The notes: a model not told the origin generated them from the letters alone. DNA of 64,000 nucleotides from Anaerolineae bacterium (GCA_027021705.1 JALUTT010000056.1:76957-140956), one strand, 5' to 3'; counted from the stretch's first letter, positions 2,425 through 30,576 are shown. A program made the numbers and translations.

Positions 2425-2453
2425 ATTCTAACACAACCCTCCCTCCCGGTCAA
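2425..2453 (-). promoter_or_regulatory. Predicted sigma70 promoter for the lipoprotein gene
   Basis: TTGACC-17 bp-TAGAAT on the minus strand. Confidence 0.7.
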
Positions 2454-2464
2454 CGCAGGGGGTC

Positions 2465-2575
2465 GGTGATTACCCCATCGCCCTGCCAATCCATTGACAG
2501 CAGTCCGCTATGGGACTCAACGTGCCCTCTTCCCGGACGGCCAATCCCCCTATCCCCGAGGTCCGGGTAATCACC
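2465..2575. mobile_element. Degenerate or short copy of MITE family A
   Basis: Perfect TIRs GGTGATTACCC (2465-2475) and GGGTAATCACC (2565-2575). The right part (GGACGGCCAATCCCCCTATC) resembles the family A end. Confidence 0.65.
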
Positions 2576-2587
2576 TGGCTATTCTGC

Positions 2588-2721
2588 GGAGATAGGGAGA
2601 CCAGCCGTCCACGAAGGGGGCACGAATACACGAATTAAGGACCGCCTCATTCGTGCATTGGTGAGAAATTCGTGGACGGCCTGCTACAGACCACTCTCTC
2701 GCTCACTTATGGGTAATCACC
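2588..2721. mobile_element. MITE family A copy, left TIR lost
   Basis: Near-identical to the reverse complement of 7506-7658; ends in TGGGTAATCACC. Confidence 0.85.
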
Positions 2722-2734
2722 ATGCTGTTCTTCC

Positions 2735-2763
2735 TTGCCGGGATGGGGATAGGCGGGTATAAT
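2735..2763 (+). promoter_or_regulatory. Predicted sigma70 promoter
   Basis: TTGCCG-17 bp-TATAAT upstream of the M50 protease gene. Confidence 0.7.
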
Positions 2764-2981
2764 GAGGCTTAACTGCTAGCGCCTCCCGGCGGCTGGAAGC
2801 CGCCGCTATGAGTAGCGAAGCCGCCCCTCGGCAGCTCCTGACCCTGCCGGATCAGGAGTCTGACGAAGGCCCGGCCTTGCCTCCTGAAGCCCGCGGCTTC
2901 CGTCGCAGGGGACAGAAGCGGAAAGTGTCGGAGGATCAAGGGAGAGGCCAGCAAGCTGTCAGGTACTCGGAAGGAGAGAGC

Positions 2982-4106
2982 ATGGAACTGGACGTAGGAA
3001 TGTGGCACGCTGGTGGACCGGCCTGGCCGGTGGGAGAGCCGCTCATTCTGCTCCAATTGCGCGAGACAGTGGCCGACCTGATGACCATCGAGCGAGTCGA
3101 AGTGTTGCACCCCCCGGCCCAGGTCGTCCGCTTCCGGGGTCGCTTGATGGGAGACCCGGAGAGGATCTTTCAGCGCTTACTCCAGCGTTTCGAGGCGTTA
3201 GGATACACGCCGACGCTGGCCCGCGAGGGGACCCAGGACCTGATCACGGCCCACCAAGGGGTGGTCCGTCCCCGCCCCGCCAGGACCTGGATCAACGCCC
3301 TTCTCTTCGTGGCGACCATCCTGACCACCCTCTACGCCGGCGCCGCCCAGCAGGGCGTTGACCTGCTGCGGGAGCCAGGCCAGTGGACAACGGGCCTCCC
3401 CTTTGCCCTCACCCTGCTGGTCATCCTGGGCACCCACGAGTTCGGCCACTACTTTGCGGCCCGCTACCACCGAGCCGCCGTCACCCTGCCCTACTTCATC
3501 CCAATGCCCTTCAACTTCCTGGGGACGATGGGAGCCTTCATCCAGCTCCGCTCGCCCATTAAGGACCGCAAGTCTCTCTTCGACATTGGCGTGGCCGGGC
3601 CACTGGCCGGTCTGGCCGTCGCCATCCCGCTGCTCCTCTACGGCCTGAGCATCTCCCCCGTGGGTCCCATTGGGCCGGGCCTGCTGGAGGGCAATTCCCT
3701 GCTCTACCTGGCCCTGAAGTACCTGGTCCACGGGCGAATCCTGCCCGGCAACGGCCTGGACGTCTGGCTCGATCCCATCGCCTTCGCCGCCTGGTTTGGG
3801 CTGTTGGTCACCTGCTTCAACCTGCTCCCCATCGGCCAACTCGACGGCGGTCACATCGCCTACGCCCTCTGGGGACGCCGAGCCTGGACCATCGCCTCCC
3901 TCTCCATCATCATGCTCTTCGCCCTCTCCTTCTTGTGGATGGGCTGGCTGACCTGGGCGCTCCTGGTCTTCTTCCTAGGGCTGCGCCATCCGCCCCCGCT
4001 GAACGACCTAACCCCCTTAGATGGGAAGCGGCGGGCCGTGGGCATCGCCACGGTGATCCTCTTCTTCCTGGTCTTCACCCCGGTGCCTCTCCAGGCCATC
4101 CCGTGA
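2982..4106 (+). CDS. Site-2 protease, peptidase M50 family
   Basis: HEFGH and NLLPIGQLDGG motifs, several TM segments. Start chosen after the AAGGAG RBS; 2808 is an alternative start. Confidence 0.9.
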   Translation: MELDVGMWHAGGPAWPVGEPLILLQLRETVADLMTIERVEVLHPPAQVVRFRGRLMGDPERIFQRLLQRFEALGYTPTLAREGTQDLITAHQGVVRPRPARTWINALLFVATILTTLYAGAAQQGVDLLREPGQWTTGLPFALTLLVILGTHEFGHYFAARYHRAAVTLPYFIPMPFNFLGTMGAFIQLRSPIKDRKSLFDIGVAGPLAGLAVAIPLLLYGLSISPVGPIGPGLLEGNSLLYLALKYLVHGRILPGNGLDVWLDPIAFAAWFGLLVTCFNLLPIGQLDGGHIAYALWGRRAWTIASLSIIMLFALSFLWMGWLTWALLVFFLGLRHPPPLNDLTPLDGKRRAVGIATVILFFLVFTPVPLQAIP

Positions 4107-4108
4107 GC

Positions 4109-6535: not shown

Positions 6536-6564
6536 GTCGGTGAGGAGGCATCAGGAGGAAAAGG

Positions 6565-7080: not shown

Positions 7081-7332
7081 TCAATGCCTCGTCGCCCGGC
7101 TGGACCGGAGCTGGACCTGATACCGGTCCAGCAGGGTCCCTAGGAGGCGACGGACCTGGCGCTCATCCAGGTGGGTCTGGAAGATGAACTGCCAGTAGGG
7201 GGGCGACCAGCGCGTGTATCCGCACAGTCCGTACTCCTGGAGCACCGCCTGAACGGCGATACAGCCGTTCTGGTCACCAACTCCCTTGACTTCGTAAGCA
7301 TGGGTAGCCTCAATCCAGGAAATGCTGTTCAT
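7081..7332 (-). CDS. Small hypothetical protein (about 83 aa)
   Basis: Normal amino-acid composition, GGGAG RBS before MNSIS, and its own predicted promoter. Confidence 0.6.
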   Translation of the reverse strand: MNSISWIEATHAYEVKGVGDQNGCIAVQAVLQEYGLCGYTRWSPPYWQFIFQTHLDERQVRRLLGTLLDRYQVQLRSSRATRH

Positions 7333-7463
7333 GTTCACTCCCGGCATTGCAAGAGAACCCGCTGCGTACCCTGGCAGACAACCCCCACAGCCGGCAAGGC
7401 TATCGGCCTGCCTCCGGAGGAGATAGAGCGGGGCTCTGAAGAGATCCCGCGCCTTTACAGGAT

Positions 7464-7492
7464 ATGATAGCGCAAACCATCCACTACGTCAA
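7464..7492 (-). promoter_or_regulatory. Predicted sigma70 promoter
   Basis: TTGACG-17 bp-TATCAT on the minus strand. Confidence 0.7.
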
Positions 7493-7505
7493 GGGCGGTG
7501 CACGC

Positions 7506-7658
7506 GGTGATTACCCACAAGTGAGCGAGAGCGTGGTCCGTAGCAGGCCGTCCACGAATTTCTCACCAATGCACGAATGAGGCGGTCCTTAATTCGTGTA
7601 TTCGTGCCCCCTTCGTGGACGGCCAGCCTCCCTATCTCCAAAGATATGGGTAATCACC
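7506..7658. mobile_element. MITE family A, full copy (153 bp)
   Basis: TIRs GGTGATTACCCA / TGGGTAATCACC; flanking direct repeat CGGTGCACGC (7496-7505, 7661-7670); internal hairpin GGCCGTCCACGAA...TTCGTGGACGGCC. Confidence 0.92.
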
Positions 7659-7696
7659 GCCGGTGCACGCCGTTTTTTGCTTCGTCTGTTCGCGGA

Positions 7697-11017: not shown

Positions 11018-11040
11018 TCGGGGGACTCTTGGAGCAGACG

Positions 11041-13775: not shown

Positions 13776-14054
13776 GAGGCCCTTCCAGGGCCGAGCTTCC
13801 GGGCCGAACGCACGTCGAGCTTGGAAAGCTCTCCTACAGCAGCAGACCGGATGTAGGAGGCCCTTCCAGGGCCGAGCTTCCGGGCCGAACGCACGTCGAG
13901 CTTGGAAAGCTCTCCTACAGCAGCAGACCGGGCGTAGGAGGCCCTTCCAGGGCCGAGCTTCCGGGCCGAACGCACGTCGAGCTTGGAAAGCTCTCCTACA
14001 GCAGCAGACCGGGCGTAGGAGGCCCTTCCAGGGCCGAGCTTCCGGGCCGAACGC
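13733..14054. repeat. Tandem array of 4 x 81 bp inverted GTAG-type REP doublets (BIME/REPIN-like)
   Basis: TGGAAAG recurs at 13741, 13822, 13903 and 13984. Each unit carries GTCG(G/A)GCTTGGAAAGC(C/T)CTCCTAC and an inverted GTAGGAGGCCCTTCCAGGGCCGA. Lies between convergent genes. Confidence 0.92.
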
Positions 14055-14878: not shown

Positions 14879-14879
14879 C

Positions 14880-15719: not shown

Positions 15720-15740
15720 CGTTTCACCTCGCTCGTAAGG

Positions 15741-15782
15741 AAAAGAAAAAGGCCACGGAGAGGGTCAGGGAACCCCGTGGCC
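15741..15782 (-). terminator. Intrinsic terminator in the 5' leader of the ABC operon (attenuator)
   Basis: Minus strand GGCCACGGGG-loop-CTCCGTGGCC followed by TTTTTCTTTT, about 20 nt before the ATPase start. Confidence 0.85.
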
Positions 15783-15866
15783 AGGGAAGGGCGAAGACAG
15801 GCCAAAAGGAAGCGGCCACGGGGCTGGAGTGCGCCCGTGGCCGCAATAAGGACCGAAAAAGATTAC

Positions 15867-15959: not shown

Positions 15960-16014
15960 TGGGTGCGCCTCCTTTCTTGCATCTCTTGCACTGAAGATCG
16001 GAAGAAGTGCCAAA

Positions 16015-16043
16015 AGTGTACCACAATTCGGGCAGGGCGTCAA
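16015..16043 (-). promoter_or_regulatory. Predicted sigma70 promoter of the leader/ABC operon
   Basis: TTGACG-17 bp-TACACT with an extended TG. Confidence 0.75.
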
Positions 16044-16055
16044 GGTCATTTCCGC

Positions 16056-16208
16056 GGTGATTACCCACAAGTGAGCGAGAGCGTGGTCCGTAGCAGGCCG
16101 TCCACGAATTTCTCACCAATGCACGATTGAGGCGGTCCTTCATTCGTGTATTCGTGCCCCCTTCGTGGACGGCTAGCCTCCCTATCTCCAAAGATATGGG
16201 TAATCACC
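16056..16208. mobile_element. MITE family A, full copy (153 bp)
   Basis: Nearly identical to 7506-7658. Flanks GGTCATTTCCGC / GGTCCTTTCCGT (10/12 direct repeat). Confidence 0.92.
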
Positions 16209-18210
16209 GGTCCTTTCCGTCCACGGTGATCATGCCCACGACGACCTCATCCCCCACCCGGCTGCGGGCATCGGTGAAAGCGGCGAAGGGGGAGCCGCTG
16301 TCGTACCAGCCCACCAAGAGAGGGTAGCGCCCTGGAGCTACCTCATCCGGCAGGAGGACCTCGAAGCGCTCCCGTACCCCTTGGCCCGGCTGCCACGCCG
16401 TCGTGGGGTACAGCGCCAGGGTGGGGAGGTGGACGATGCGGGCATCGTCCACGCCCCCCAGCCGGCTCACCGCCAGCAGGGGAGGGCGATCGGCCAGAGA
16501 GCCTAGAGCGATCCAGTCGTAGCGCAGGCGGAACCGCCGCCCGCCCAGGGGCTCCACCTCTGCCCCCACCAACCCGATGGCCTCCCCAAAGCGGGCCTGA
16601 AGGGGGGAAGGATCGGCGGCAAACCACTCGACCTGCTGCCCCAGCGCCCGGCCGGCCGGTGGGTGGCGCTGGAAGAGGAGTAAGCCATCCCGGGCAGCCA
16701 CCAGCCCGAAGGCCGGATCGCGCAGCAGCAGCGTGATGGCAGGCACGTCGTACATCACGCCGCCGGCGATGTAGGCCCCCTTGACGGGAACGGCGTAGTC
16801 GAAGAGGGCATCGGGCAGCGCGTAGGCCACCTCATCCAGACGACGGGCCAGACGCAGGGAGGCCGGGCTGGGGGGCTCGTCCCCATAGCGCACCAGGTAG
16901 AGGGTCGGGCGGTTGGTCAGGCGTGGGGCCAGAAAGGTGGAGACCGCCAAGGGGAGGTCGGGAGGGACTTGGGCCGGCAGCCAGCGATCCTTAAGGGCAT
17001 CGCGGGAGGTACGGCCATAGGCCCAGGGGTCAAGGCCCCGCCCGGGCACCCCCGTCCAGAAGAGGGGGCTGAGAGGGGTGTCCACGAGCCCCGCGTTGAA
17101 GAGGGCAACGATGGCCAGGGTCAGGAAGACCTGCCCCCGCCAGGGCGGGCGGGTTCTCCGCCGATCGGAGGCCTGAAGTGCCGGCCCCCTGACCAGGGCA
17201 GCGGCACCGTAGACAATGGCGGCCACCAGGAAGGGGACGGCCAGGGCGTAGTGGTGGTAGCGGTAGTCATAGACGGGGCCGGGGCCGGTGCTGAGGAGCA
17301 CGGGGAGGGCGATGATGGCGGCCGGGAGGAACCAAGAGGGGGCGTGGCGTCCCAGCAGCAGGGCCGGGCCGAAGACTACGATGCCGTTCAGGAGCCGGTC
17401 GCCCACCGTGGCAGGCACCAACCGGTTCAGCGCCCCGAAGTAGAAGGTCAGCAGGTAGTCCAGGCCGGTGGGAGAGGGAGGAGGCATCTGGGCCGGGGCA
17501 AAGAGGGGCTGCACGACCAGGAGGGCCATCCCTGTCCAGGCCAGACCGGCCAGGATGGTGATCCGGCCCATCCGGCGCTCGCCCCGCCATCCGATGACCA
17601 CCCCCAGGGTGGTGACGACGATGCCCACGTAGAGCTTGCAGCTGAGGGCCAGGGCCAGCCAGAGGGCGTAGGGCCGCCAGGCCCGACGGTCGAGAGCCTC
17701 GATGGTCAGGAGCAGCAAGGGCATCGCCAGGGTGTCGCCGTGAAAATCGAAGAGCACAGCGGTCTGGGCAACAGGGTAGAGCAGGTAGCTCAGCATCAGC
17801 GCCCGAGCAGCGTTCCGGCTGCCGGTGTGGCGCAGGACCAGCCGGTAGACAGGCAACGCCCCCAACGTGAAGAGGGCCGCCTGGACCACCAGCAGGAGGC
17901 GGGGATCGGGCCAGAGCCGGTAGGGGAGGGCGAGGAGGAAGTAGATCACCTCGACGTGGAGGGCAAGACGGCTGAGGTTACCTTCCGTAAAGGTGAACTC
18001 CAGGGGCCGCCCGTGACCGGCACTCCAGATCGCCTGAGCCATATTGCCCAGATCGAACATCCCAACGTTGTAAGCCCCGTAGCGCATCAAGCTGAGGGTG
18101 GTCAGCATCCCCCCCACGACCAGTGCCATCACCAACGCCCACCCATCCATTGGAGGCGGATGATGGCCCCTAACCCTCGCCGCCGGTCGGTCAACGGCCT
18201 GGCTCATCAT
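16204..18210 (-). CDS. DUF2079-like GT-C membrane protein
   Basis: FDLGNMAQAIW, LALH, LFDFHGDTLAMP, YHHY, many TM segments, C-terminal beta domain. Its TGA stop lies inside the MITE terminus. Confidence 0.8.
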   Translation of the reverse strand: MMSQAVDRPAARVRGHHPPPMDGWALVMALVVGGMLTTLSLMRYGAYNVGMFDLGNMAQAIWSAGHGRPLEFTFTEGNLSRLALHVEVIYFLLALPYRLWPDPRLLLVVQAALFTLGALPVYRLVLRHTGSRNAARALMLSYLLYPVAQTAVLFDFHGDTLAMPLLLLTIEALDRRAWRPYALWLALALSCKLYVGIVVTTLGVVIGWRGERRMGRITILAGLAWTGMALLVVQPLFAPAQMPPPSPTGLDYLLTFYFGALNRLVPATVGDRLLNGIVVFGPALLLGRHAPSWFLPAAIIALPVLLSTGPGPVYDYRYHHYALAVPFLVAAIVYGAAALVRGPALQASDRRRTRPPWRGQVFLTLAIVALFNAGLVDTPLSPLFWTGVPGRGLDPWAYGRTSRDALKDRWLPAQVPPDLPLAVSTFLAPRLTNRPTLYLVRYGDEPPSPASLRLARRLDEVAYALPDALFDYAVPVKGAYIAGGVMYDVPAITLLLRDPAFGLVAARDGLLLFQRHPPAGRALGQQVEWFAADPSPLQARFGEAIGLVGAEVEPLGGRRFRLRYDWIALGSLADRPPLLAVSRLGGVDDARIVHLPTLALYPTTAWQPGQGVRERFEVLLPDEVAPGRYPLLVGWYDSGSPFAAFTDARSRVGDEVVVGMITVDGKDR

Positions 18211-19222: not shown

Positions 19223-21543
19223 CCCGTCCCTCGCCATCGTTGGAAGACCGTCGGCAGGTAGAGCCGGACCAAGGTAGCGGAAGGGGGCGGACGCCGGTAG
19301 TAGCCCGTCCCCGGTGAGGCGAGCCAGAGGGTGTGAGGGGGGGTGGGCTCCACGGCGATGGCGTTGGCGAAGGGCCACGCCAGCCCCTCGTTGAAGGCGA
19401 TCCACGTCTGTCCGCCGTCGGCGCTGAAGAGGACACCGTGGGAGGCGGGGTCGTATCCGCCGGCGTAGAGGGCACTGCTGGAAGCGATGAGGAGTTGGTC
19501 GGGGTCGGTGGGGAAGGGGACCACATCGCGCAAGAAGTCGTCCGTCCACAGCTTCCTCCAGGTCGCGCCCCCATCCCGGCTGCGGTACAGCCCTTTCCCC
19601 GGTCCGAAGACGGCCACGTAAACCCATCCTGAGCGGACCGGGTCGGGCCGAATGGCGGCCACGCCCTCCCAATCGCTTTCCCAGAAGCCGGTGCCGGGCG
19701 TGCCCACCATAGCCGGCGGACCGATGGGGTCCCACGATCCGGGAGCGCCACCCTGAGAGGACCGCCAGAGGCCCGCTTCACCGCCGGCGTAAACCAGACG
19801 GCCGTCCTGAGGGTCCACGGCGGTGTAACGGCAGCCGTTGCAGTCCAAGACCAAGCTCCAACTCTCTCCATCGTCCCGGCTGCGGTAGACGTCGCCGTCC
19901 ACAGTGATGAAGAGGGTGCGGGTGTCAGAGGGGCTGGTGGGGTCCACGCTCAGGCCGGCGGGGATGCCGTCGGGGAGGCCGTCGTTGGCCGGCCGCCAGG
20001 TTGCGCCATAATCGTCGCTGCGCAGCAGGGTGTGCCTGCTCTCCTCGATCTCGTTCGCCTGGGTGATCCAGACCACGTTGGGGCGGGTAGGGTCGGTGGC
20101 AACGGTCATGCTATTGCCGCCGTAGCCGTTCCAGGTCCCCACGTAGTCAGGGTCGTTGCAGTTCTGCCAACTCGCGCCGCCGTCATCGCTGCGGAAGCAG
20201 CCCAGGTCGGGCATCGCCAGGTAGACGTGGGTGGCGTCGGCGCTGATGGCCAGGCCGAAGGTCACGATGTTGTCCACCCCCCGGGATCTCCACCGGCCCG
20301 GCGCGACCTCGTCGGTGTAGAGGGGAGCGAAGGTGCGCCCGTCGTCCCGGCTGGCCCAGAGGAACTGGCTGTCGGCCCACAGGAGTGCATCGGGGTCCGA
20401 CGGGTCCACCCCCAGGGTCTTGGCATCGCCGTTGAAACTGATGCCGTAGGCGTGGTCCTCGTCCGTCCAGCCCACCTCCCAGTCGCTCTTGTCGCCGATG
20501 AGGTTCCAGTGGACGCCGCCATCGGTGGATTCCCACAGCGCGGGGTAGTCCATAGCGATGAGGCGGATGGCCCGTTGGTCGTCGGCGTCCAGCCAGATCA
20601 GCCAGTTGCCGGCTTCCAGGTTGTCTCCGTTGGTCAGCTGCTCCCACGTCCAGTGGCCGTCGAAGGTGCCTCGGTAGAGGTACCCCCCTTGGGGGTCGTC
20701 GTAAACGCAGGTGTAGCCAGGGTCCCACACGTCGCCGTAGGTGGTCAGGTAAAGGGTATTGGCATCGTTGGGATCCAGGGCAACGTCGGCGATCTGCCCC
20801 AGGTGGGTGGCGATGGGAGTCCAGTGGACGCCGCCATCGGTGCTCTCGTAGAGGGCGGCCGGACCACAGGCGAAGCGGCCCTCCCCGGCCAGCAGGTAGA
20901 GGACCTCTTCGTCTTCCCAGTCCACGATCAGCCGGAGGATGTGCAGGCCGCCGGGCAGGGTATCGTCGCTGACGCGCTCCCAGCTCAGACCCCGGTCGGT
21001 GGTCCTGTAGACCACGCCGTCAGCGATGTTGTGCTGCGAGTGGTAGGCTGCGTAGCCCACCCGAGGGTTGCTGGGAGCGACGGCGATGTCAGTGATATAG
21101 CCGTGATCCAGGACGGGTTCGAAAGTGTCGCCGTAGTCGTCGCTGCGGAAGATGCCCATCTCGGTGCCCAGGTAGAGGATGGCCGGGTCGTCGGGATCGA
21201 AGCCGAGGCCGCTGACATGGGTGGAGGTCAGGCCACGGAAGGAGCCGATGACATCCCAGCTCTTCCCACCGTCGCGGGAGCGGTAGGCCCCGCTCAGGTC
21301 GCTGGCAGCCAGGATGATCCCGGTCGGTCCGGCCCCGATGGTGGAGAAAGCACCGCCCCCGCCGGGGTTGGTCCGCTGCCACCGGGAGGGGGGAAGGGAG
21401 GGGAGGGAGGGCCGGGTCGGCGCGGTGAGAGGAGGGACGGTCAGGGCGATGGTGGGGGAGCCCAGGTTCGGCCTCCCACAGGCAAAGAGGAAGACGAGGA
21501 GGAAGAGCAGAGCTGGACAGGCCCTGGACTTTGGCGACTTCAT
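19219..21543 (-). CDS. Lipoprotein with BNR/Asp-box double beta-propeller (GH74/VPS10-like)
   Basis: Lipobox LFAC, PGGGG, many S.D.G.(S/T)W repeats, C-terminal LYLPTVF. Confidence 0.85.
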   Translation of the reverse strand: MKSPKSRACPALLFLLVFLFACGRPNLGSPTIALTVPPLTAPTRPSLPSLPPSRWQRTNPGGGGAFSTIGAGPTGIILAASDLSGAYRSRDGGKSWDVIGSFRGLTSTHVSGLGFDPDDPAILYLGTEMGIFRSDDYGDTFEPVLDHGYITDIAVAPSNPRVGYAAYHSQHNIADGVVYRTTDRGLSWERVSDDTLPGGLHILRLIVDWEDEEVLYLLAGEGRFACGPAALYESTDGGVHWTPIATHLGQIADVALDPNDANTLYLTTYGDVWDPGYTCVYDDPQGGYLYRGTFDGHWTWEQLTNGDNLEAGNWLIWLDADDQRAIRLIAMDYPALWESTDGGVHWNLIGDKSDWEVGWTDEDHAYGISFNGDAKTLGVDPSDPDALLWADSQFLWASRDDGRTFAPLYTDEVAPGRWRSRGVDNIVTFGLAISADATHVYLAMPDLGCFRSDDGGASWQNCNDPDYVGTWNGYGGNSMTVATDPTRPNVVWITQANEIEESRHTLLRSDDYGATWRPANDGLPDGIPAGLSVDPTSPSDTRTLFITVDGDVYRSRDDGESWSLVLDCNGCRYTAVDPQDGRLVYAGGEAGLWRSSQGGAPGSWDPIGPPAMVGTPGTGFWESDWEGVAAIRPDPVRSGWVYVAVFGPGKGLYRSRDGGATWRKLWTDDFLRDVVPFPTDPDQLLIASSSALYAGGYDPASHGVLFSADGGQTWIAFNEGLAWPFANAIAVEPTPPHTLWLASPGTGYYRRPPPSATLVRLYLPTVFQRWRGTG

Positions 21544-21598
21544 CGGCTACAATCCCGGTGTTGTTGAGCAGTCACCACATCGGCAGGAGGTTCATCCG

Positions 21599-22570
21599 AT
21601 GAAACAAGTATACCACGACCGTTCGGGTTCGGACAAGGCCCCCTCCCCCAACGATCCCTCCGTGGCGGTTTTCGGCAACGTGACCCTCGACGTCATCTGC
21701 TTCCCGGTCAACGATGTCCCTCGCTACGAGTCCATCGCCTTCGAGCGGGCCGTCATTTCACCGGGCGGCTGTGCCTCCAACACCGCCATCGGCCTGGCAG
21801 CGCTGGGCGTCCCGACGCTGCTGGTGGCCCGCGTCGGCGATGACGAGGCCGGAGAGATGGCCCAGCGCTACTGGCAACGGGCCGGGGTCGAGACCCGCTT
21901 CGTCCGCCGCGTCGCCGATGTGGGGACGGCGGTCAGCGTGGGGCTGGTGGACAGGGAGTTCCAGCCCCGCTTCGTACACACGCCGGGGGCCAACGCAGGT
22001 CTCACGGTGGACGACCTGGACCTGCCCACCCTCGCGGAGGCCGGCGTCCGCTGGCTCCACGTGGCTGGCTACTTTGTGCTGCCGGGGCTGCTGGATGGGC
22101 GGCTGGCCGACGCCTTGGCCCAGGCCCATTCCCTGGGGATGCGCACCTCCCTAGACGTGGTGCGGAACATACGCATGGACGACCCCCAGGCGCGGGCTGT
22201 CTTCTGGTCTTGCCTGCCCCACTTGGATGTCTGGATGGGTAACGCCCACGAAGCCCAACGCCTGACGGGGACGGAGGACCCGGTGGCGGCGGCCCAGGCC
22301 CTGCGGGCCGGCGGGGTGCGCCTCGTCCTTGTCAAGCTAGGGGCAGCGGGCTGCCGCGCCGAGGGTGAGGGCTTCCAAGGTGTCGTCCCGGCACCTCGGG
22401 TGGATGTCGTGGACACCACCGGGGCGGGCGACGCCTTCGCCGCCGGCTTCATCGCCGCGACGCTGCGCGGCGCCGATGTGGAGGCGGCCTGCCGGGCGGG
22501 CAACGAGGCCGGTGCCCGGGTGGTGGGCCGACTGGGGCCGGTAGCCGCCTGGTTCGACGGCATGGCGTGA
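21599..22570 (+). CDS. PfkB-family carbohydrate kinase
   Basis: PGGCASNTAIGLAALG, VGDD, NAHEA, VKLGAAG, VDTTGAGDAFAAG; AGGAGG RBS. Confidence 0.92.
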   Translation: MKQVYHDRSGSDKAPSPNDPSVAVFGNVTLDVICFPVNDVPRYESIAFERAVISPGGCASNTAIGLAALGVPTLLVARVGDDEAGEMAQRYWQRAGVETRFVRRVADVGTAVSVGLVDREFQPRFVHTPGANAGLTVDDLDLPTLAEAGVRWLHVAGYFVLPGLLDGRLADALAQAHSLGMRTSLDVVRNIRMDDPQARAVFWSCLPHLDVWMGNAHEAQRLTGTEDPVAAAQALRAGGVRLVLVKLGAAGCRAEGEGFQGVVPAPRVDVVDTTGAGDAFAAGFIAATLRGADVEAACRAGNEAGARVVGRLGPVAAWFDGMA

Positions 22571-22733
22571 TGGGTTCCCCTTGAGCACCGAAAAGCTCCA
22601 ACCCTCAGAGGGTCATTGCGCAAATTCGCTTTTGGTGGTAGGATAGGGGAAGGAATTCGGAGCTTCAACTCCAAATTTGTTCGAGGTTCGTTGGCCGGTT
22701 CTCTCCCGTTTCTTAGCAGGAAGGAGAAGGCAA

Positions 22734-25700
22734 ATGCAGCGAGACCGATCGGTAAAACGTTCTGCCGGACCTCGTGCTCCTCTTAGGCAGCCTCTGTACG
22801 GAGGTCTGGCCCTCTTGATGTTGATCCTGGGAGTGGTGGGTCTGACGAGCGCCGCCAGCAAACCGAGCTTCCTCACCGAGAGCACTTCCAACGTCTCGGC
22901 CGGCACCAAGACCTACCGCATCTGGTACACCACCGACTGCAACGGCGGTGCCGACTGCGAATGCGACACCGCCCTGGACACGGATACCAGCGACCCACCT
23001 GACGGTACTCCCGACCAGGACTCCCCCAACGATTGCATCGCCACCGTGGACAGCGATTCGGACGGTGTCTTCGACACCGGCCCCGACGATGACAGCGACG
23101 GTGTGCTGAACGTGGTGGACCTGGACTGGTTCGGGGGCGGGACCGGTGTCGTGGAGAGCGTGCCCCGCAACGTGCAGCGCACCATCGCCCGGTACGTCAA
23201 CGACTGGGGCCTCAAAGAGCCCAAGTGGGACCGGGATACGAACCGCAACATCTACATCTACGACATCGCAGCCCTAGGCATCTCCTATGGCGATGGGAGT
23301 GGAGAGGAACTGGACACCGAGTGGATGCTGACCCAGGCACCCGAGCCCCGGGGCACCGTGCTGCACGAGCTCTGGCACAACACCCAGTTCGCCTACGGCG
23401 TCAGTGCCGGAAAGTGGTTGGTGGAGGGCCAGGCCCGGATGCTCCAGGACAAGGTCTTCGACGACCTGGACAACCGGGTGGGCAGTCGCTACCACAACTC
23501 GGTGGCGGCCTACCTGGGCAACCCCACCTACGTCATCAGGGAAGACCGGGATGACGACGGCACGGGAGAGTTCGCCCAGGCCAAGGGGCTGCTGGGGGCC
23601 AGCTACAACGCCTCCCTCTGGTGGACTTACGTCGCCGAGCAAGCGGGCACCCTGTACACCGGCACGGCCGGTGAGGGGATGGACGCCCTGGAGGCGGTGT
23701 TGAAGCAAGCCGACGACCACGGTCGCCAAGGGGTGGATGCCGTGGACCGGGTGCTGCGCGACCGCCTGGGCCGGGGCTTCGACGACACCTTCTGGGACTT
23801 CACCATCGCCAACTACGCCAAGGAGTTCGACCTGAGCCTGCTGGACCACAGCTACCTGGACGGTCGGGACCCGGAGCGAGTGCTCACCTACCGGGATGAG
23901 AAGCGCACCCCTCCTGACCAACTGATCTACCGCTACAACGACCCCACCTTGGGGTGGGTCAACGGTCCGAAGCGGCAGCGCTTCACCGGTACCACGCTCT
24001 TCAGCGGGGCCAACGGCCGCGTAGACGCGATGGACCCGGAGGTCAACGACCCCGATGCGATGTCGGCCTACGGGGCCAAGTACTACGAGGCCGAGGTCAA
24101 CGCCGATTGCCTCCTCATCTACTGGCGGGTCCTCGGCGATCCGGGAGCCCGTTTCATGCACTCCTGGATGATGATCCAAGAGGATTCCAACGGTGACGGC
24201 TCTGAGGAGATCATCACGCTGTTGCGCAGCGAGGGGGAGGACTTCGCCCGGGCGGCTTGGATTCCCCGCCGGAGCACCGGCCTGCCCCAGTACACCCGGA
24301 TGGTGGCCATCGTCGCCACCGGCAGCCGGGCTTACGGCTACAACTGGGAACTGGGCTGTACCCAGCCCAGCGTTAACATCGTCTCGCCGACGACGGCCAA
24401 TCCGGCCTACGTGGGGGACCCCGGCGAACCCGGGCGCTTCCTGCTCTGGCTGGAGGTGACGGGGGCGGCGGGCACCAGCACCTACGTGGCCGGGCTGGAG
24501 TGGAGCCGCGACTTCACCGTCACCGTGGGGACCGATGTCGCCCAGATCCTCAACGGGGGCTACGTGCAGAACCAGTACTGGCTGGTGGTCCAGGCCCCCA
24601 CCAAGCCCGGTGCCAGCCTCGGCGACAAGTTCGATGTCACCGTGCAACTGGGACCCAGCACCAGCACCTCCGACACGGAGGTCCAGGCCGTCGTCTACGA
24701 CCTGCGGACCAGCGATCAGGTCCTGGTGGTGGACGCCAGCGGCAGCATGGGGTACAACGACAAGCTGGTCTCCGCCAAAGCCGCGGCCCGCCTCTTCGCC
24801 GACGTCAAGCAGCAGTTCGACCAATTGGGTGTGGTCAGCTTCAGCACGGATGCCACCCAGGAGTTCCCCCTGACGGTGGTGCCGGACCAAGATGATGCGG
24901 CCGGTGTGCGGGCCAGCGCCCAGACGGCCATTAACGGGATCACGGAGAAGACCACCACCTCCATCGGCGACGGCCTGCAGATGGGCCAGAGCATGTTGGC
25001 TGCCAGCGGCAGCCCCGATCACCAGTGGGTGATGGTGCTGCTCAGCGACGGGATGGAGAACGAGCCCCTCTACTGGAGCAACGTCCGAGCCAGCATCGTC
25101 GCCTCCGGGACGAAGGTACACGCCATCGCTTTAGGGCGGGACGCCGACGAGGAGCTGATGCGGGAGATCGCCGAGGCCACCTGCGGCTCCGTCTGGGTGG
25201 ACCAGTGCTACCACTACATCGAGGAAAGCGGGGTCCTGACGACGACGGGGATGAGCACCGCTGCCGTCAGCAACCTGCCCAACGCCCTGGCCGACATCTA
25301 CCGGCGGGCCGAGGAGACCATCGCCGGTCACCAACGGCTCTGGCAGGGGGGTGGCACACTCAGCGGCAGCCAGTCCATCCCCGTGACCATCGCCGAGGAT
25401 GGCGTGCGGAACGCCTTCTTCAGCTTCCACTGGAACGATTCGACGGCCCCCTTGAACGTGAGCATCACCGGCCCCGGGGGGGTCTCCTTCATCCAGCTTA
25501 GCGATGGCAAGAACCACCAGGTCTTCTACGCCGATAAATTGCCGCCGGGCACCTACACCCTTCACCTCTCCGCGCCCGGCGGGGCCACCACCTGGATCGG
25601 CAGCCTCTCCGGTCGGATGGTCTACGGCACCGAGATGTACGCCTTCCTGGACAACACCCAGGCCGAGCGCTACCCCGGCCTCCCGGTGCGCCTGCAGGCC

Positions 25701-27365
25701 AGCCTGACCGACCACAAAGGGCCGGTGACCGGGGCGGTCATCAGCGCCACCGTCTACCACCCCGACCTGGGCGTTGAGGTAGTCCGGCTGGTGGACGACG
25801 GCGGCCCCTATGACGATGTGGCCAACGACGGCGTCTACGGCTACGTCTACGACCGGATCAACCGGCCCCTCAAGATAGACGTTCAGTTGGGCCACACTTG
25901 GGTCTTCGACCTCTACGCCACCGGGGTCAACAACGATGGCAAGCCCTTCGAGCGCTACCAGCGGCTGACCTACACCCCCTTCCTGGGCCGGGAGCAGGTC
26001 TCGCTGGACACCGATGGCGACGGGATGTTGGACCGATGGGAGGACCGCTTCGAGGGCCCCTCGACCGGTGTGGCCGACGACGGTGAAGACCCGGATGGGG
26101 ATGGCCTGACCAACAAGGAGGAGTTTGAGCGAGGGACCAATCCCGACGACCCCGACACCGACAAGGGGGGAGAGACCGACGGGAGCGAGGTCGCCCGAGG
26201 GCAGAACCCCCTCTTCACCGCCGACGACGCCATCCCGCCCATCACCGACTTCTGGGTGGAGAACCAGCCCGAGAGCGTGATCCTGCACTTCAACCCCCGG
26301 CCCGAGTACCAGAAGATGCGGATCTACCGGCGCACGGGTCTGACGGGGACCTTCACCCTGATCACCGAGGTCGTCCTGCCCTCGATGACGACCTCCCTGG
26401 CCTCCGCGCCGTTGGTGCCCAGCCGTAGCGTGTCCGGCTTCGACCCCTCCAAAGGGCAAGTCCGCGACACCGGGCTGGTCAACGATCAGGACTACTTCTA
26501 CTACCTCCAGCCGGTGGGGGCCTCCAGCGTGGTGGGAGCCCCCAGCGAGGTGCGCTACGCCGAACCGGCCAAGGACCCCTATCAGCCGGAGGGGGTGGTG
26601 GTCATCAACGACGACGATCCCTTCACCACCAGCAAGAACGTGACCCTCACCTTCCAGGGGCTGACGCCGCCCGACGGGAGCCTCGACATCCGCGCCGTGC
26701 AGATCAGCAACTCTCCAGAGCTGACGGGTGTCGCCTGGCAGCCCTTCCAGCCGGAGATCCCCTGGACCCTCGATCCCGATCCGACGACGGGAGTAGCTTT
26801 CGTCCACGTCCGCTTCCGCGACGGCGCGGGCAACGAGAGCGATGTGATCTACGGCGATGGGATCGTCTACCGGCCTCCCCTCATCCTGCCGCCCGGCCTG
26901 CTGGACTTCGGCTGGGTCATCGCCGACTTCCAGGACCCTTGGTTCAAGGACCTAACCATCCTCTACACCCCTCTGCGCTGGCCTGACCTGGGCCTGGGCA
27001 GCTCGGCTCTGCGTGCCTCGGCGGTGGATCAGGCGGGGAAGCCCCTCTTCTACGCCGGCATCGGCTTTGAGCTCCAGGCGATGGACGCCCTGAGCCAGCC
27101 GGTTACCCAGTTCGATCGCCCCTTCACCCTGACGGTCAGCTACGAAGATTGGCAATGGCAGAGCGCCGGGATCGGCTCCGAAGACTCGCTGAACCTCTAC
27201 TGGAACAGCAGAGGGACCTGGGAGCCGGTGCTGCCTTGCACCGGCTGCAGCCACGACCCGACGGAGAACGTCTTCATCATCCCGCTGACCCACCTAACCC
27301 GGTTCGCCCTGTTGGGGAGGCCGGCCTCCCCCGTCTACCTGCCTATCGTCTTCAAGGGGTTCTGA
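22734..27365 (+). CDS. Large secreted zincin-VWA multidomain protein
   Basis: Signal or TM segment, Ca-binding DxDxDG repeats, HELWH...EG, MIDAS DASGS/TSIGDG/LLSDG, LVDDG..DDVANDGVY, FN3-like region, C-terminal VYLPIVFK. Confidence 0.85.
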   Translation: MQRDRSVKRSAGPRAPLRQPLYGGLALLMLILGVVGLTSAASKPSFLTESTSNVSAGTKTYRIWYTTDCNGGADCECDTALDTDTSDPPDGTPDQDSPNDCIATVDSDSDGVFDTGPDDDSDGVLNVVDLDWFGGGTGVVESVPRNVQRTIARYVNDWGLKEPKWDRDTNRNIYIYDIAALGISYGDGSGEELDTEWMLTQAPEPRGTVLHELWHNTQFAYGVSAGKWLVEGQARMLQDKVFDDLDNRVGSRYHNSVAAYLGNPTYVIREDRDDDGTGEFAQAKGLLGASYNASLWWTYVAEQAGTLYTGTAGEGMDALEAVLKQADDHGRQGVDAVDRVLRDRLGRGFDDTFWDFTIANYAKEFDLSLLDHSYLDGRDPERVLTYRDEKRTPPDQLIYRYNDPTLGWVNGPKRQRFTGTTLFSGANGRVDAMDPEVNDPDAMSAYGAKYYEAEVNADCLLIYWRVLGDPGARFMHSWMMIQEDSNGDGSEEIITLLRSEGEDFARAAWIPRRSTGLPQYTRMVAIVATGSRAYGYNWELGCTQPSVNIVSPTTANPAYVGDPGEPGRFLLWLEVTGAAGTSTYVAGLEWSRDFTVTVGTDVAQILNGGYVQNQYWLVVQAPTKPGASLGDKFDVTVQLGPSTSTSDTEVQAVVYDLRTSDQVLVVDASGSMGYNDKLVSAKAAARLFADVKQQFDQLGVVSFSTDATQEFPLTVVPDQDDAAGVRASAQTAINGITEKTTTSIGDGLQMGQSMLAASGSPDHQWVMVLLSDGMENEPLYWSNVRASIVASGTKVHAIALGRDADEELMREIAEATCGSVWVDQCYHYIEESGVLTTTGMSTAAVSNLPNALADIYRRAEETIAGHQRLWQGGGTLSGSQSIPVTIAEDGVRNAFFSFHWNDSTAPLNVSITGPGGVSFIQLSDGKNHQVFYADKLPPGTYTLHLSAPGGATTWIGSLSGRMVYGTEMYAFLDNTQAERYPGLPVRLQASLTDHKGPVTGAVISATVYHPDLGVEVVRLVDDGGPYDDVANDGVYGYVYDRINRPLKIDVQLGHTWVFDLYATGVNNDGKPFERYQRLTYTPFLGREQVSLDTDGDGMLDRWEDRFEGPSTGVADDGEDPDGDGLTNKEEFERGTNPDDPDTDKGGETDGSEVARGQNPLFTADDAIPPITDFWVENQPESVILHFNPRPEYQKMRIYRRTGLTGTFTLITEVVLPSMTTSLASAPLVPSRSVSGFDPSKGQVRDTGLVNDQDYFYYLQPVGASSVVGAPSEVRYAEPAKDPYQPEGVVVINDDDPFTTSKNVTLTFQGLTPPDGSLDIRAVQISNSPELTGVAWQPFQPEIPWTLDPDPTTGVAFVHVRFRDGAGNESDVIYGDGIVYRPPLILPPGLLDFGWVIADFQDPWFKDLTILYTPLRWPDLGLGSSALRASAVDQAGKPLFYAGIGFELQAMDALSQPVTQFDRPFTLTVSYEDWQWQSAGIGSEDSLNLYWNSRGTWEPVLPCTGCSHDPTENVFIIPLTHLTRFALLGRPASPVYLPIVFKGF

Positions 27366-27525
27366 GGGCGGTGGCGATCAGCCGTGGGAGCCGGGTCCGG
27401 TCTGGTGCCGGATCCGGCTTCGCTTCTACGGGGCTACCCAAGGCTTCGATCGAGGGTATAATAGAGGGAGCAGGGGGAGGTCCGGTGGCAAAACGACCGT
27501 GCGAGTTCGAGCTTAGGGAGGAACG

Positions 27526-28299
27526 ATGAGCATCCACGTACCCGACCGGCACAACGAGAAGCTGCATCGTCTCGTGGAGCGGATCAACGCCGATGCCGAG
27601 TTGATCCAGCTCTGGAAGTGTGCCAACGTCAACGCCGTGGACCGGACCGGCATCAGCGACCACGGTGAGGTCCACATCCGCATCGTCGCCAACGCGGCGC
27701 TGCGCATCCTGCGCCTGCTGGTGGAGGCCGGCGTCGAACCCAGCGTCGTCACCCACCACGGGCTGACGCCGGAGGATGCCGAGTTGGTCGTCGTGCTGGC
27801 CGCCTGTCTGCACGACCTGGGCATCGCCGTGCACCGGGACGACCACGAATGGTACAGCCTGATCCTGGGCTATCCCAAGGCCCGACAGCTTCTGAGCGGC
27901 ATCTACGAGGAGCCGGCGCTGACCATTATGGTCTCCGAGGTGCTCCACGCCGTCATCGCCCACCGCTGGGACGTGCGTTGCCTGACCATCGAGGCGGGCG
28001 TGCTGAAGGTGGCCGACGCTCTGGACATGACCGAGGGCCGTTCTCGCATCCCCTTCGAGGCAGGCCAGGTCAACATCCACTCCGTCTCCGCCCTGGCCGT
28101 CGAGAACGTGGCCATCGAGCGGGGGGAGGAGCGGCCGGTGCGCATCGCCATCCGGCTGGGAAATTCGGCCGGCATCTTCCAAGTGGACGAACTGCTCAAG
28201 CGCAAGCTCCAGAACTCCACCTTAACGCCTTACGTCGAGGTCGTCGCCCATCTGGAAGGGGAGATGGAGAAGCGGCTGGTGGGCATCTACCGGCTCTGA
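27526..28299 (+). CDS. HD-domain metal-dependent phosphohydrolase
   Basis: SDHGEVH, LHDLG, IAH, VADALD, GRSRIPFE, NIHSVSA. Confidence 0.9.
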   Translation: MSIHVPDRHNEKLHRLVERINADAELIQLWKCANVNAVDRTGISDHGEVHIRIVANAALRILRLLVEAGVEPSVVTHHGLTPEDAELVVVLAACLHDLGIAVHRDDHEWYSLILGYPKARQLLSGIYEEPALTIMVSEVLHAVIAHRWDVRCLTIEAGVLKVADALDMTEGRSRIPFEAGQVNIHSVSALAVENVAIERGEERPVRIAIRLGNSAGIFQVDELLKRKLQNSTLTPYVEVVAHLEGEMEKRLVGIYRL

Positions 28300-28315
28300 G
28301 GGCCGGAAATTCCCC

Positions 28316-28468
28316 GGTGATTGCCCATATCTTTGGAGATAGGGAGACCGGCCGTCCACGAATGGGGCACGAATACACGAATTAAGGACCCCCTCATTCG
28401 TGCATTGGTGAGAAATTCGCGGACGGCCTGCTACGGACCACGCTCTCGCTCCCTTGTGGGTAATCACC
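28316..28468. mobile_element. MITE family A, full copy (153 bp), opposite orientation to the 7506 copy
   Basis: GGTGATTGCCCA...TGGGTAATCACC; flanking direct repeat GAAATTCCC (28306-28314, 28471-28479). Confidence 0.92.
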
Positions 28469-28481
28469 GCGAAATTCCCTC

Positions 28482-28510
28482 TTGACAGAATTTCTCAAAG
28501 TGGTCATAAT
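28482..28510 (+). promoter_or_regulatory. Predicted sigma70 promoter of the acyl-CoA ligase gene
   Basis: TTGACA-17 bp-CATAAT. Confidence 0.8.
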
Positions 28511-28558
28511 GGACTTACCTGCCCAGTTCTTACCCCCTGCATCCAAAGGAGGTTCCCA

Positions 28559-30181
28559 ATGGCTGCTTACCCCTTCCAACTGTTGCTCAAGCACATCCTC
28601 CACTACGGCGTGGCCTGGGCTCCCGACCAGGAGATCGTCTACCGGGACCAGGTCCGCTACACCTACCGGGATATGGCCCAGCGGGTGCTCCGGCTGGCCG
28701 GCGCCCTGCGCACCCTGGGCGTGGAGAAGGGAACCAAAGTCGGCGTCATCGAGTGGGACAGCCATCGCTACCTGGAAATCTACTTCGCCGTTCCCGGCAT
28801 CGGAGCCATCCTCCACACCATCAACCCTCGCCTGGCCCCCGAGGACCTGGTCTACACGATGGCCCACGCCGAGGACGAGGTGCTCATCTTCCACGAGGAC
28901 TTCCTCCCCCTGGTGGAACGGGTGCGCCCCCGCCTGCCCTCCATCCGTAAGTACGTGCTGATCACCGACAAGGCGGAGAAGCCGGAGGTCAAGGTTGACG
29001 CCGAGTACGAGGAACTCCTGGCCGGCGCCACCCCCCTGGACGAACTGCCCGACCTGGACGAGAACACTCAGGCCACCCTGGCCTACACCACCGGAACGAC
29101 GGGCAAGCCCAAGGGGGTCTACTTCAGCCACCGCCAGTTGGTCCTGCACACGCTGGTGGGTGGCGTCACCCTGGCCGCCTTCGGCAACTACGGCGGCCTG
29201 AACAAGCACGATGTCTACATGCCCCTGACCCCGATGTTCCACGTTCACGCCTGGGGCCTGCCCTACATGGCCACCCTCTTCGGCCTGAAGCAGGTCTACC
29301 CCGGCCGCTACGAGCCGGAGATGCTCCTCCGCCTCATCTTGGGGGAGAAGGTGACCTTCAGCCACTGCGTGCCCACCATCCTCCAGATGATCGTCACCGC
29401 GCCCGCCGTTCAGAACCTGGACCTGAGCCGCTGGAAGGTGATCATCGGTGGGGCCCGGCTCTCCAAGGGGCTGGCGCTGCAGGCGACAAAGCTGGGCATC
29501 AAGGTCTACGCGGGCTACGGGATGTCGGAGACCTGCCCGGTCCTCACCATCGCCAACCTCAAGCCGTTCATGGAGGACGAGTGGGACGAGGAGAAGCAAC
29601 TGGACTGGGCCATCAAGACCGGCTTCCCGGTCCCCTTGGTCCACCTGAAGGTGGTGAGCCCGACGGGCGAGGAGGTGGCCCACGATGCCCACGAGACGGG
29701 CGAAATCGTAGTGCGGGCTCCCTGGCTGACCGAGGGGTACTACAAGGAGCCGGAGCGGACGGAGGAGCTGTGGGCCGGTGGGTGGCTCCACACGGGCGAT
29801 GTGGCCCACGTGGACGAGTACGGCTACGTCCAGATCGTGGACCGGCTCAAGGACGTCATCAAGAGCGGAGGCGAGTGGATCGTCTCTCTGGAGCTGGAGA
29901 ACCTCCTCAGTCTGCACGAGGGGGTGCAGGAGGCCGCCGTCATCGGCATCCCCGACGAGAAGTGGGGCGAGCGGCCCCTGGCCATCGTCGTGCCTCGGGA
30001 AGGGTACAAGGAGCGTCTGACGGACGAGGCGCTCAAAGCCCACCTGACCAAGTTCGTCGAGGATGGGGTGATCACCTCCTGGGCAGTGCCCGACCAGTAC
30101 GTCTTCGTGGATGAACTGCCCAAGACCAGCGTGGGCAAGATTGACAAGAAGGTACTGCGAAGTCGCCACGGCGCTGCCTGA
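28559..30181 (+). CDS. Fatty-acid/acyl-CoA ligase (AlkK/LcfA-like AMP-binding enzyme)
   Basis: YTTGTTGKPKG, PMFHVHAWG, GYGMSET, WLHTGD, DRLKDVIKSGGE, PKTSVGK; AAGGAGG RBS. Confidence 0.92.
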   Translation: MAAYPFQLLLKHILHYGVAWAPDQEIVYRDQVRYTYRDMAQRVLRLAGALRTLGVEKGTKVGVIEWDSHRYLEIYFAVPGIGAILHTINPRLAPEDLVYTMAHAEDEVLIFHEDFLPLVERVRPRLPSIRKYVLITDKAEKPEVKVDAEYEELLAGATPLDELPDLDENTQATLAYTTGTTGKPKGVYFSHRQLVLHTLVGGVTLAAFGNYGGLNKHDVYMPLTPMFHVHAWGLPYMATLFGLKQVYPGRYEPEMLLRLILGEKVTFSHCVPTILQMIVTAPAVQNLDLSRWKVIIGGARLSKGLALQATKLGIKVYAGYGMSETCPVLTIANLKPFMEDEWDEEKQLDWAIKTGFPVPLVHLKVVSPTGEEVAHDAHETGEIVVRAPWLTEGYYKEPERTEELWAGGWLHTGDVAHVDEYGYVQIVDRLKDVIKSGGEWIVSLELENLLSLHEGVQEAAVIGIPDEKWGERPLAIVVPREGYKERLTDEALKAHLTKFVEDGVITSWAVPDQYVFVDELPKTSVGKIDKKVLRSRHGAA

Positions 30182-30208
30182 CGCCGCCCCCAGGACAGGC
30201 GTCTTGCC

Positions 30209-30244
30209 AAGAGGCCGGGCATCGCTGCCGTGCCCGGCCTCTTT
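30209..30244 (+). terminator. Hairpin terminator after the CoA ligase
   Basis: AAGAGGCCGGGCA-loop-TGCCCGGCCTCTT, followed by T. Confidence 0.7.
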
Positions 30245-30338
30245 CCCAATGTATGGGGCTGCGCCGGTGGACGATGGCTCCAGCGAGAAGTCCTTCTGGG
30301 ACATCCTCGGCGCGGCGAACCCCTGATCTGCATTCATT

Positions 30339-30490
30339 GGTGATTACCCATATCTTGGGGGTAGGGAGATCAGCCGTCCACGAATGGAGCACAAATACGC
30401 GAATTAGGAGCCGCCCCATTCGTGCATTCGCGAGAAATTCGTGGACAGCCTACTGCAGCCCACTCCCCCACTCACTTGTGGGTAGTCACC
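30339..30490. mobile_element. MITE family A, diverged copy
   Basis: GGTGATTACCCATATC...TGTGGGTAGTCACC, colinear with 28316-28468 but with many substitutions. Confidence 0.88.
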
Positions 30491-30576
30491 GGGCATCCAC
30501 TCTGGTCCAATTGCGAGAAACGTGGCATAATCCTAGCAAAGGCTCCGGGTTCCTGATGGTCTTCGGGGGGGAGACG

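Follow-up and report, generated by a model that had tools for sequence, protein, structure and literature searches.

A 64,000-nucleotide stretch of DNA from an Anaerolineae bacterium (GCA_027021705.1, JALUTT010000056.1:76957-140956; the window, in what follows) carries several copies of a short repeat, a miniature inverted-repeat transposable element (MITE), each lying beside a sequence that resembles a sigma70-type promoter. The locus thereby raises two questions: whether the promoter determines where this nonautonomous element inserts, and which transposase would be responsible. Genome-wide counts bear on the first of these. The genome is a 5.19-Mb draft (183 contigs, 94.9% complete, 66% GC), from which a BLAST search with the window copy at 7504-7660 retrieved 95 near-full-length copies, 93 of them with usable flanks; 124 ends of the type designated A (defined below) were counted in all. 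Promoters were scored as matches to TTGACA and TATAAT separated by spacers of 16 to 18 bp, with the offset taken as the start of the -35 box relative to the GGTG terminus (GGTGATT) of the element. With 8 or more of 12 consensus positions required to match, a site was present at offset 12 to 16 in 78 of the 93 copies, compared to 1.26% of 20,000 random positions, and at a threshold of at least 9 of 12 the corresponding values were 70 of 93 copies and 0.19%. An earlier note on this DNA had expected a narrow promoter distance throughout the genome, and the BLAST-retrieved copies display one: the positive copies number 2, 15, 44, 14, and 3 at offsets 12, 13, 14, 15, and 16, respectively (mode, 14), and 68 of the 78 have a 17-bp spacer. 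Exact TTGAC is concentrated at offsets 13 to 15 beyond both of the element's ends, with at most one occurrence at nearly all other offsets. The element is thus a strongly non-random, promoter-homing MITE, and the data support the view that its insertion site is set by the neighboring sigma70-type promoter.

A bias toward promoters could also arise if insertion were random, or merely preferred intergenic DNA, and selection had retained the harmless copies upstream of promoters. Insertions in genes or core promoters would indeed be purged, and the copies are fairly old, given a median identity of 94% to the reference copy and three sites examined that are shared with a strain differing at about 1 to 2% of positions over the compared stretch (public sequencing run X2). 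However, precision at the level of single bases (73 of 78 copies at offsets 13 to 15) is beyond the reach of selection, positions farther upstream would be at least equally harmless, the same 8 bp are reused where elements are stacked, and the pattern recurs on unrelated contigs. We consider this explanation very improbable.

The flanking sites appear to be actual promoters rather than a bare motif. Among copies whose -35 box matches the consensus at 5 or more of 6 positions, 49 of 56 (87.5%) also have a -10 box matching at 4 or more, against a genome-wide baseline of 591 of 7,956 TTGAC sites (7.4%) with such a -10. Twelve of the 93 copies combine a poor -35 (at most 3 of 6) with a strong -10 (at least 5 of 6) at the right place, as do 0.14% of random positions, and G is enriched immediately upstream of the -10 in the MITE flanks, as in extended -10 promoters. 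The direction of neighboring genes was assessed from codon-position GC in the 600 bases past each end; this replaced a longest-open-reading-frame test, which is too noisy at 66% GC. On the promoter side, coding sequence is codirectional in 40 cases, opposite in 3, and unclear in 34. The nonpromoter side gave 19 codirectional versus 29 opposite cases.

These same data bear on how the site would be recognized. A transposase of the Tn5-like kind described below, inserting with the same geometry, might read the sequence or shape of TTGAC(A) directly, with RNA polymerase and sigma uninvolved. DNA-sequence targeting is the usual way in which transposases choose sites, no other single signal at a fixed distance is as strong as TTGAC, and 5 of the 93 copies have a strong -35 with no recognizable -10. 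Against direct readout stand the 12 copies placed at the right distance from a strong -10 despite a poor -35 (about 90-fold over chance), the excess of -10 boxes at strong -35 sites (although selection could contribute to it), and a distance that varies by 1 bp in either direction, as it likewise does for TnGBS (15 to 17 bp; PMC3942029). We regard direct readout as a serious competitor, although clearly the less likely one.

Within the window, the TIR core GGTGATTACCC (TIR, terminal inverted repeat) occurs 13 times with at most one mismatch, compared to 0.81 occurrences expected, and the matches pair into elements at 2465-2575, 7506-7658, 16056-16208, 28316-28468, and 30339-30490. Aligned copies extend each end by two bases (GC...GC or GC...GG), and 8-bp duplications sit 2 bases beyond the GGTG termini, so the element measures 157 bp. 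The length of about 153 bp given in the earlier note holds for the TIR-to-TIR span and not for the element proper. TIR searching and direct reading of the sequence recovered all six family copies previously claimed for the window, together with one additional fragment, as follows.

7504..7660, + strand: full-length MITE copy of 157 bp, used as the reference; the left (A) end is GC plus GGTGATTACCCACAAGT, and the right end is ...GGGTAATCACC plus GC
16054..16210, + strand: full-length MITE copy with 98% identity to the one at 7504
28314..28470, - strand: full-length MITE copy with its A end at the right
30337..30492, - strand: diverged MITE copy (82% identity with the reference) whose A end is at the right
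2588..2723, - strand: MITE copy with its A end at 2711-2723; the far (B) TIR is missing where the next element abuts
2465..2575, unstranded: variant element of 111 bp; the TIRs are the same, the interior is different and diverged
63413..63447, unstranded: B-end fragment of a further MITE copy, additional to the six, cut off by an unrelated insertion sequence (IS) that begins TAGTGGTTTGTCAACC and runs to the end of the window and contig

The MITE has no coding capacity; it is 157 bp long with a hairpin interior, and the open reading frames (ORFs) that cross it are longer frames entering from the flanks. The reference copy folds into a long hairpin (-78.9 kcal/mol; z score, -8.7), and an Rfam search with the MITE gave no match. 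Its interior (7543-7625 in the reference) forms a hairpin of 80 bases, each arm of which has three CACGAAT units. Within the class, 55 of 401 genomes, from 37 of 216 genera, carry this inner hairpin free of the TIRs, with 73 to 97% identity and often just past a stop codon; the whole MITE is in none of the 400 genomes of the class searched. The interior has the look of a separate, widely conserved palindromic repeat captured by the MITE. As a separate matter, the unrelated IS with the start TAGTGGTTTGTCAACCGATATTTTG occupies 63448-64000, as far as the contig end, and is also found on contigs C71, C82, and C124; it has inserted into three MITE copies at CTAG or TAG, and the contig breaks within it.

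The gaps between GGT terminus and -35 box at the six copies had been put at 11 to 13 bp, with 17-bp spacers throughout, and both statements agree with the sequence. In the order of the copies along the window, the gaps are 11 bp (TTGACC, 2448-2453), 13 bp (TTGCCG, 2735-2740), 13 bp (TTGACG, 7487-7492), 12 bp (TTGACG, 16038-16043), 13 bp (TTGACA, 28482-28487), and 12 bp (a weak TGGTCC, 30503-30508). Each of the six promoter-like sites is directed at a codirectional ORF.

2425..2453, - strand: promoter-like site; TTGACC (2448-2453), 17-bp spacer, TAGAAT (2425-2430); directed toward an unnamed ORF of 428 amino acids at 1203-2489 (-)
2735..2763, + strand: promoter-like site; TTGCCG, 17-bp spacer, TATAAT; upstream of an M50 peptidase gene at 2808-4106 (+)
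7464..7492, - strand: promoter-like site pointing away from the MITE; TTGACG (7487-7492), 17-bp spacer, TATCAT (7464-7469); upstream of an 88-amino-acid ORF at 7081-7347 (-)
16015..16043, - strand: promoter-like site; TTGACG, 17-bp spacer, TACACT; upstream of an ABC transporter ATPase gene at 14880-15719 (-)
28482..28510, + strand: promoter-like site beginning 3 bp past the target duplication; TTGACA, 17-bp spacer, CATAAT; upstream of an AMP-binding enzyme gene (ORF 28454-30181, +)
30503..30531, + strand: promoter-like site; weak -35 TGGTCC, extended -10 TGgCATAAT (30523-30531); upstream of a GAF histidine kinase gene (ORF 30253-32094, +)

The core promoter is left intact at these insertions and the upstream DNA is replaced, as the earlier note had proposed: the -35 and -10 boxes are kept, and everything beyond about -38 is exchanged for the element. 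The fixed orientation that it had also described applies to the window, where all five determinable copies agree, and not to the family. Genome-wide, the promoter lies past the CACAAGTGAG end in 45 copies and past the other end in 33 (binomial P = 0.21). At a 45:33 ratio, five of five has P = 0.06 and is within chance, so the uniform orientation in the window is not a family property.

Target duplications had been suspected at three window copies, and all three were found, at 8 bp each: CGGTGCAC, TC(A/C)TTTCC, and GAAATTCC.

7496..7503 (left) and 7661-7668 (right), unstranded: target duplication CGGTGCAC of the 7504 copy
16046-16053 and 16211-16218: target duplication of the 16054 copy, TCATTTCC and TCCTTTCC, respectively
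28306-28313 and 28471-28478: target duplication GAAATTCC of the 28314 copy

Genome-wide, exact direct repeats 6 bp or longer flank 57 of 93 copies, compared to 1 of 93 when flanks were randomly re-paired; an 8-bp duplication register fits 38 copies, a 9-bp register 14, and a 7-bp register 13. At seven places (on contigs C10, C47, C67, C92, C107, C125, and C156), elements are stacked with identical 8 to 9 bp between them. In the C156 stack, two elements between divergent promoters are set apart by three copies of CTGCTGAC. In such stacks the newcomer reuses the target even though the upstream DNA is already a transposon end, which indicates that the site is fixed from the promoter side.

The duplications also bear on whether the -35 and -10 boxes might belong to the mobile element itself, as an outward-facing promoter. 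Many IS carry outward-facing -35 boxes. In this family, however, a variable 8-bp duplication lies between TIR and -35, so the promoter is host DNA; the surroundings of the boxes differ at every copy, and the promoter is on one side only. An element-borne promoter is thus scarcely credible.

A comparison of contigs from three public runs with window positions 14200-32000 revealed no empty site or polymorphism, as the contigs break at MITE edges and none spans a MITE. The strain of run X2, which shares the three insertions mentioned above, lacks 23 bases at 30327, directly beside the 30339 MITE.

The promoter habit extends to other elements with the same TIRs. Of 12 such elements elsewhere in the genome, 8 stand at promoters; a 163-bp family is among them, as are two minis. 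The minis (C92:74139-74171, 33 bp, and C144:47110-47159, 50 bp) consist of little beyond the two TIRs and keep the usual promoter distance. Short elements with MITE TIRs on foreign contigs have a promoter-like site in 13 of 21 cases, compared to 5.0% at random positions of the same loci. The habit follows the TIRs rather than the interior and so travels with the enzyme that binds the ends.

To identify that enzyme, metagenome contigs were scanned for the TIRs, giving 124 stretches, and 400 genomes of the phylum were also searched. The earlier note had called for a longer element with the same TIRs; elements of this kind, 1.42 to 1.46 kb in length, were found on foreign contigs and not in this assembly. 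Seven of them, with both 19-bp TIRs, come from metagenome contigs (L035, L039, L042, L055, L083, L096, and L110), and two (L157 and L158) come from the phylum search. The nine aligned full-length elements each contain a single ORF of 425 to 464 amino acids between inverted ends of 19 bp, GCGGTGATTACCCAYAAGT. Among full-length or near-full-length elements with both flanks, 6 of 10 have a promoter-like site at offset 12 to 16 (L055, L083, L096, L157, L158, and L164; P of about 3e-6 against a 5% background); an eleventh TIR pair, within L042, is spurious and was left out of this count. L083 and L158 have perfect 8-bp duplications, and two single-ended IS copies, L062 and L075, have TTGACA at offsets 14 and 13. 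Subterminal sequence also matches, with the MITE B end agreeing with the 5' end of L083 at 28 of 32 bases and the MITE A end agreeing with the 5' end of L110 at 24 of 32.

The fold of the encoded protein was predicted with AlphaFold from 14 sequences (predicted local distance difference test [pLDDT], 76; predicted template modeling score [pTM], 0.80). In a Foldseek search of the Protein Data Bank (PDB), all six matches at E values of ≤0.001 were Tn5 transposase or its inhibitor. The best of these, 1muh (E value, 8e-14; template modeling score, 0.62), covers the predicted fold over its whole length in about 480 columns, with 14 to 16% identity to Tn5 in the structural alignment. The match is to a Tn5-type fold, which comprises an N-terminal DNA-binding part, an RNase H core with a beta-strand insertion, and C-terminal helices. 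D117, D209, and E340 do not vary, and the last helix retains R336-x3-E340. The IS4 signature takes the form Y-x2-R-x3-E-x6-K; the consensus of this family has W333 at the aromatic position and Q347 at the last position. A conserved stretch just past the first catalytic Asp (residues 117-145) is modeled with low confidence and might, speculatively, provide a candidate contact surface. Judged by its sequence, the transposase appears to be a divergent lineage outside the NCBIfam IS4, IS701, IS1380, and IS1634 families; its best IS4-type score in NCBIfam is 43.4 bits, against a cutoff of 152. The lineage is populous: the 8,000 candidates scored gave 2,249 clusters at 90% identity, nearly all named "hypothetical protein" and located on contigs of about 1.5 kb, while clustering at 50% identity gave 1,419 clusters at E values of ≤0.001 and 194 at ≤1e-30. 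The cluster names of three homologues sourced from NCBI likewise read only "hypothetical protein."

We consider it probable that the MITE is a 157-bp derivative of this Tn5-like IS and was placed upstream of promoters by the corresponding transposase, supplied in trans. In the mechanism we propose, the MITE would be a noncoding deletion derivative of an IS family of about 1.43 kb encoding an IS4-superfamily DDE transposase. The Tn5-like transposase, acting in trans, would bind the two 19-bp ends, and the resulting synaptic complex would capture target DNA beside the promoter-bound holoenzyme. The element would then be pasted into an 8-bp (sometimes 7- or 9-bp) staggered cut made 2 to 4 bp upstream of the -35 hexamer of a sigma70-type promoter, at roughly -39 to -46. 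The near identity of the two ends allows either one to face the promoter. The core promoter would survive, and the UP element and any upstream activator or repressor sites beyond about -38 would be displaced by 157 bp. The Tn5-like enzyme family would accordingly have moved the copies in this genome, and would have found its site through RNA polymerase holoenzyme bound at the promoter, by contact with sigma region 4 or the alpha C-terminal domain, or through the DNA that the holoenzyme distorts, rather than from TTGACA alone. Tethering or recognition of bent DNA is favored because the -10 matters despite a poor -35, the distance wobbles by one base, and the target corresponds to the proximal UP-element position.

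Several observations weigh against this reading. All promoters here are predicted from consensus matches; 15 of the 93 MITE copies and 4 of the 10 full-length elements have no promoter-like site at the expected place, and purifying selection against insertions at intragenic TTGAC could inflate the share of sites with a -10. The full-length elements were found through a TIR search, so that the shared TIR is partly by construction, and no exact parent with a subterminal match at both ends was found among them. Sequence models recognize the transposase poorly. Of three proteins scanned with Pfam DDE_Tnp_1 (PF01609; cutoff, 23 bits), L083 scored 32.7 bits, while L039 (17.3) and L035 (16.7) fell below the cutoff, and the NCBIfam models for IS4, IS701, IS1380, and IS1634 gave 19 to 43 bits against cutoffs of 100 to 440. 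When the transposase alignment was run as a profile against PDB sequences, neither Tn5 nor any other meaningful match came up, which is why the fold search was needed. Finally, the assembly contains neither the transposase gene (tblastn, none at E values of ≤1e-3) nor a long element with the MITE TIRs. Because the gene is absent from a draft of 183 contigs and 94.9% completeness, we infer mobilization in trans in this genome. Contig ends and short contigs of the assembly held only MITE ends. A parent element was also sought in the genome as TIR pairs 300 to 6,000 bp apart; these showed no recurrent size, and two pairs that agreed past the TIR core proved to be two separate MITEs.

The earlier note had instead named a Mutator-like transposase of the TnGBS/ISLre2 type as the mover. 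The case for such an enzyme, of either the ISKra4 or the ISLre2/TnGBS kind (collectively p-MULT), is that p-MULT transposases are the only published promoter-homing transposases of bacteria, with 8- to 9-bp duplications and promoters 13 to 17 bp from the inverted repeat, and that ISKra4-group IS with near-perfect inverted repeats insert both ways round (text of PMC3942029, Guerillot et al. 2014). An ISKra4-family fragment is also present in this genome. This sole Mutator-like candidate, on the 1.1-kb contig C168, encodes part of an ISKra4-family transposase, residues 103-422, which scores 247 bits with NF033572 (cutoff, 205). However, the element's own end, continued on contig C41, reads ...TTTTGGTCACGCTC and is unrelated to the MITE end, and the TIRs of ISKra4 relatives at 52 to 70% identity start with GGGT(C/G)TG or GAGTCTG. 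Among 44 distinct flanks of the TTTTGGTCACGCTC-type TIR in the genome, none has a promoter-like site at offsets 8 to 22; these sites present an AT-rich target of about 9 bp instead of a promoter. The TTTTGGTCACGCTC-type repeats are a second, separate nonautonomous family. In addition, the protein encoded between MITE-type TIRs gave no match to a p-MULT family (NF033529, NF033572, or IS256 type), and hhalign comparison of the transposase profile with the ISKra4 profile returned a probability of 0.2%. With full-length elements that share the MITE ends encoding a Tn5-like DDE transposase, and the genome's ISKra4 element having unrelated ends, the Mutator-like proposal is not supported, and we judge a p-MULT mover to be improbable. 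Among other candidates, a single weak match to ISLre2 (NF033529) in the genome turned out to be the ISKra4 fragment, and the ISKra4 protein compared with 40 relatives gave fragments only. The UPF0236 profile (PF06782) had no match in the genome and none in control genomes.

The behavior of the MITE resembles that described for p-MULT elements. As with ISKra4, ISLre2, and TnGBS, insertion occurs at a fixed short distance upstream of the -35, generates 8- to 9-bp duplications, and leaves the core promoter intact. TnGBS and ISLre2 insert in an oriented manner, 15 to 17 bp from the promoter, and the distance for the MITE is shorter, at 12 to 14 bp from the GGTG terminus or 10 to 12 bp from the true end. 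In inserting in both orientations, the MITE is instead like 13 ISKra4-group IS with near-perfect inverted repeats, 8- to 9-bp repeats, and promoter homing. These descriptions follow the text of PMC3942029 (Guerillot et al. 2014), in which the word MITE does not occur. With respect to the features that define p-MULT elements, a fixed promoter distance of 13 to 17 bp is shared as behavior only (73 of 78 copies at offsets 13 to 15) and 8- or 9-bp repeats are present, but a Mutator-like transposase is not: the enzyme has a predicted Tn5-like IS4 fold with no detectable homology to p-MULT.

Tn5 itself has 19-bp ends and a characteristic catalytic spacing. The full-length elements resemble Tn5/IS50 in predicted fold, in the DDE triad, in the R-x3-E of the last helix, in having one transposase gene in about 1.4 kb, and in the 19-bp ends. 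They differ from the Tn5/IS4 family in being very divergent in sequence and in a duplication of mostly 8 bp. For Tn5 and IS10, target choice depends on a weak sequence consensus and is not known to involve promoters. The MITE is also comparable to the bacterial MITEs Correia/NEMIS, RUP, and MITEAba12, being short, noncoding, intergenic, and strongly folding, with TIRs, a duplication, and about a hundred copies; to our knowledge, none of those families has been reported at one fixed promoter-relative position. Our searches of the open literature, together with the main text of PMC3942029, turned up no description of these ends or of promoter homing by an IS4-type element. Promoter homing as a behavior is known; the probable enzyme family is new to it.

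Two further features of the window are unconnected with the MITE. A tandem array at 13651-14135 consists of about five 81-bp units that are 60 to 97% identical to the reference unit, and the stretches 42709-43077 and 46606-46971, about 3.9 kb apart, are 72 to 83% identical and probably represent paralogous genes.

Published cases of insertion at a set promoter distance are confined to Mutator-like transposases, and how it comes about has been an open question since 2009. We lean, by a small degree, toward the view that promoter homing arose independently in a widespread environmental Tn5-like lineage, which would dock on promoter-bound holoenzyme and integrate at the proximal UP-element position, and that the MITE now sits at the upstream edge of a sizeable share of this genome's consensus-like promoters (49 or more, where the genome has about 591 TTGAC sites followed by a -10). 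If this is true, a second, unrelated enzyme family has the same habit and the trait is convergent, which would narrow the recognized feature to something common to promoters, either the holoenzyme or DNA bent by it. No bacterial transposase is better understood or more extensively engineered than that of Tn5, and a promoter seeker of the Tn5 type would for that reason be tractable in vitro and might serve as a promoter-tagging tool. For the host, about 80 promoters would have had their upstream regulatory DNA moved off by a 157-bp hairpin, a genome-wide rewiring that would spare core promoter function.

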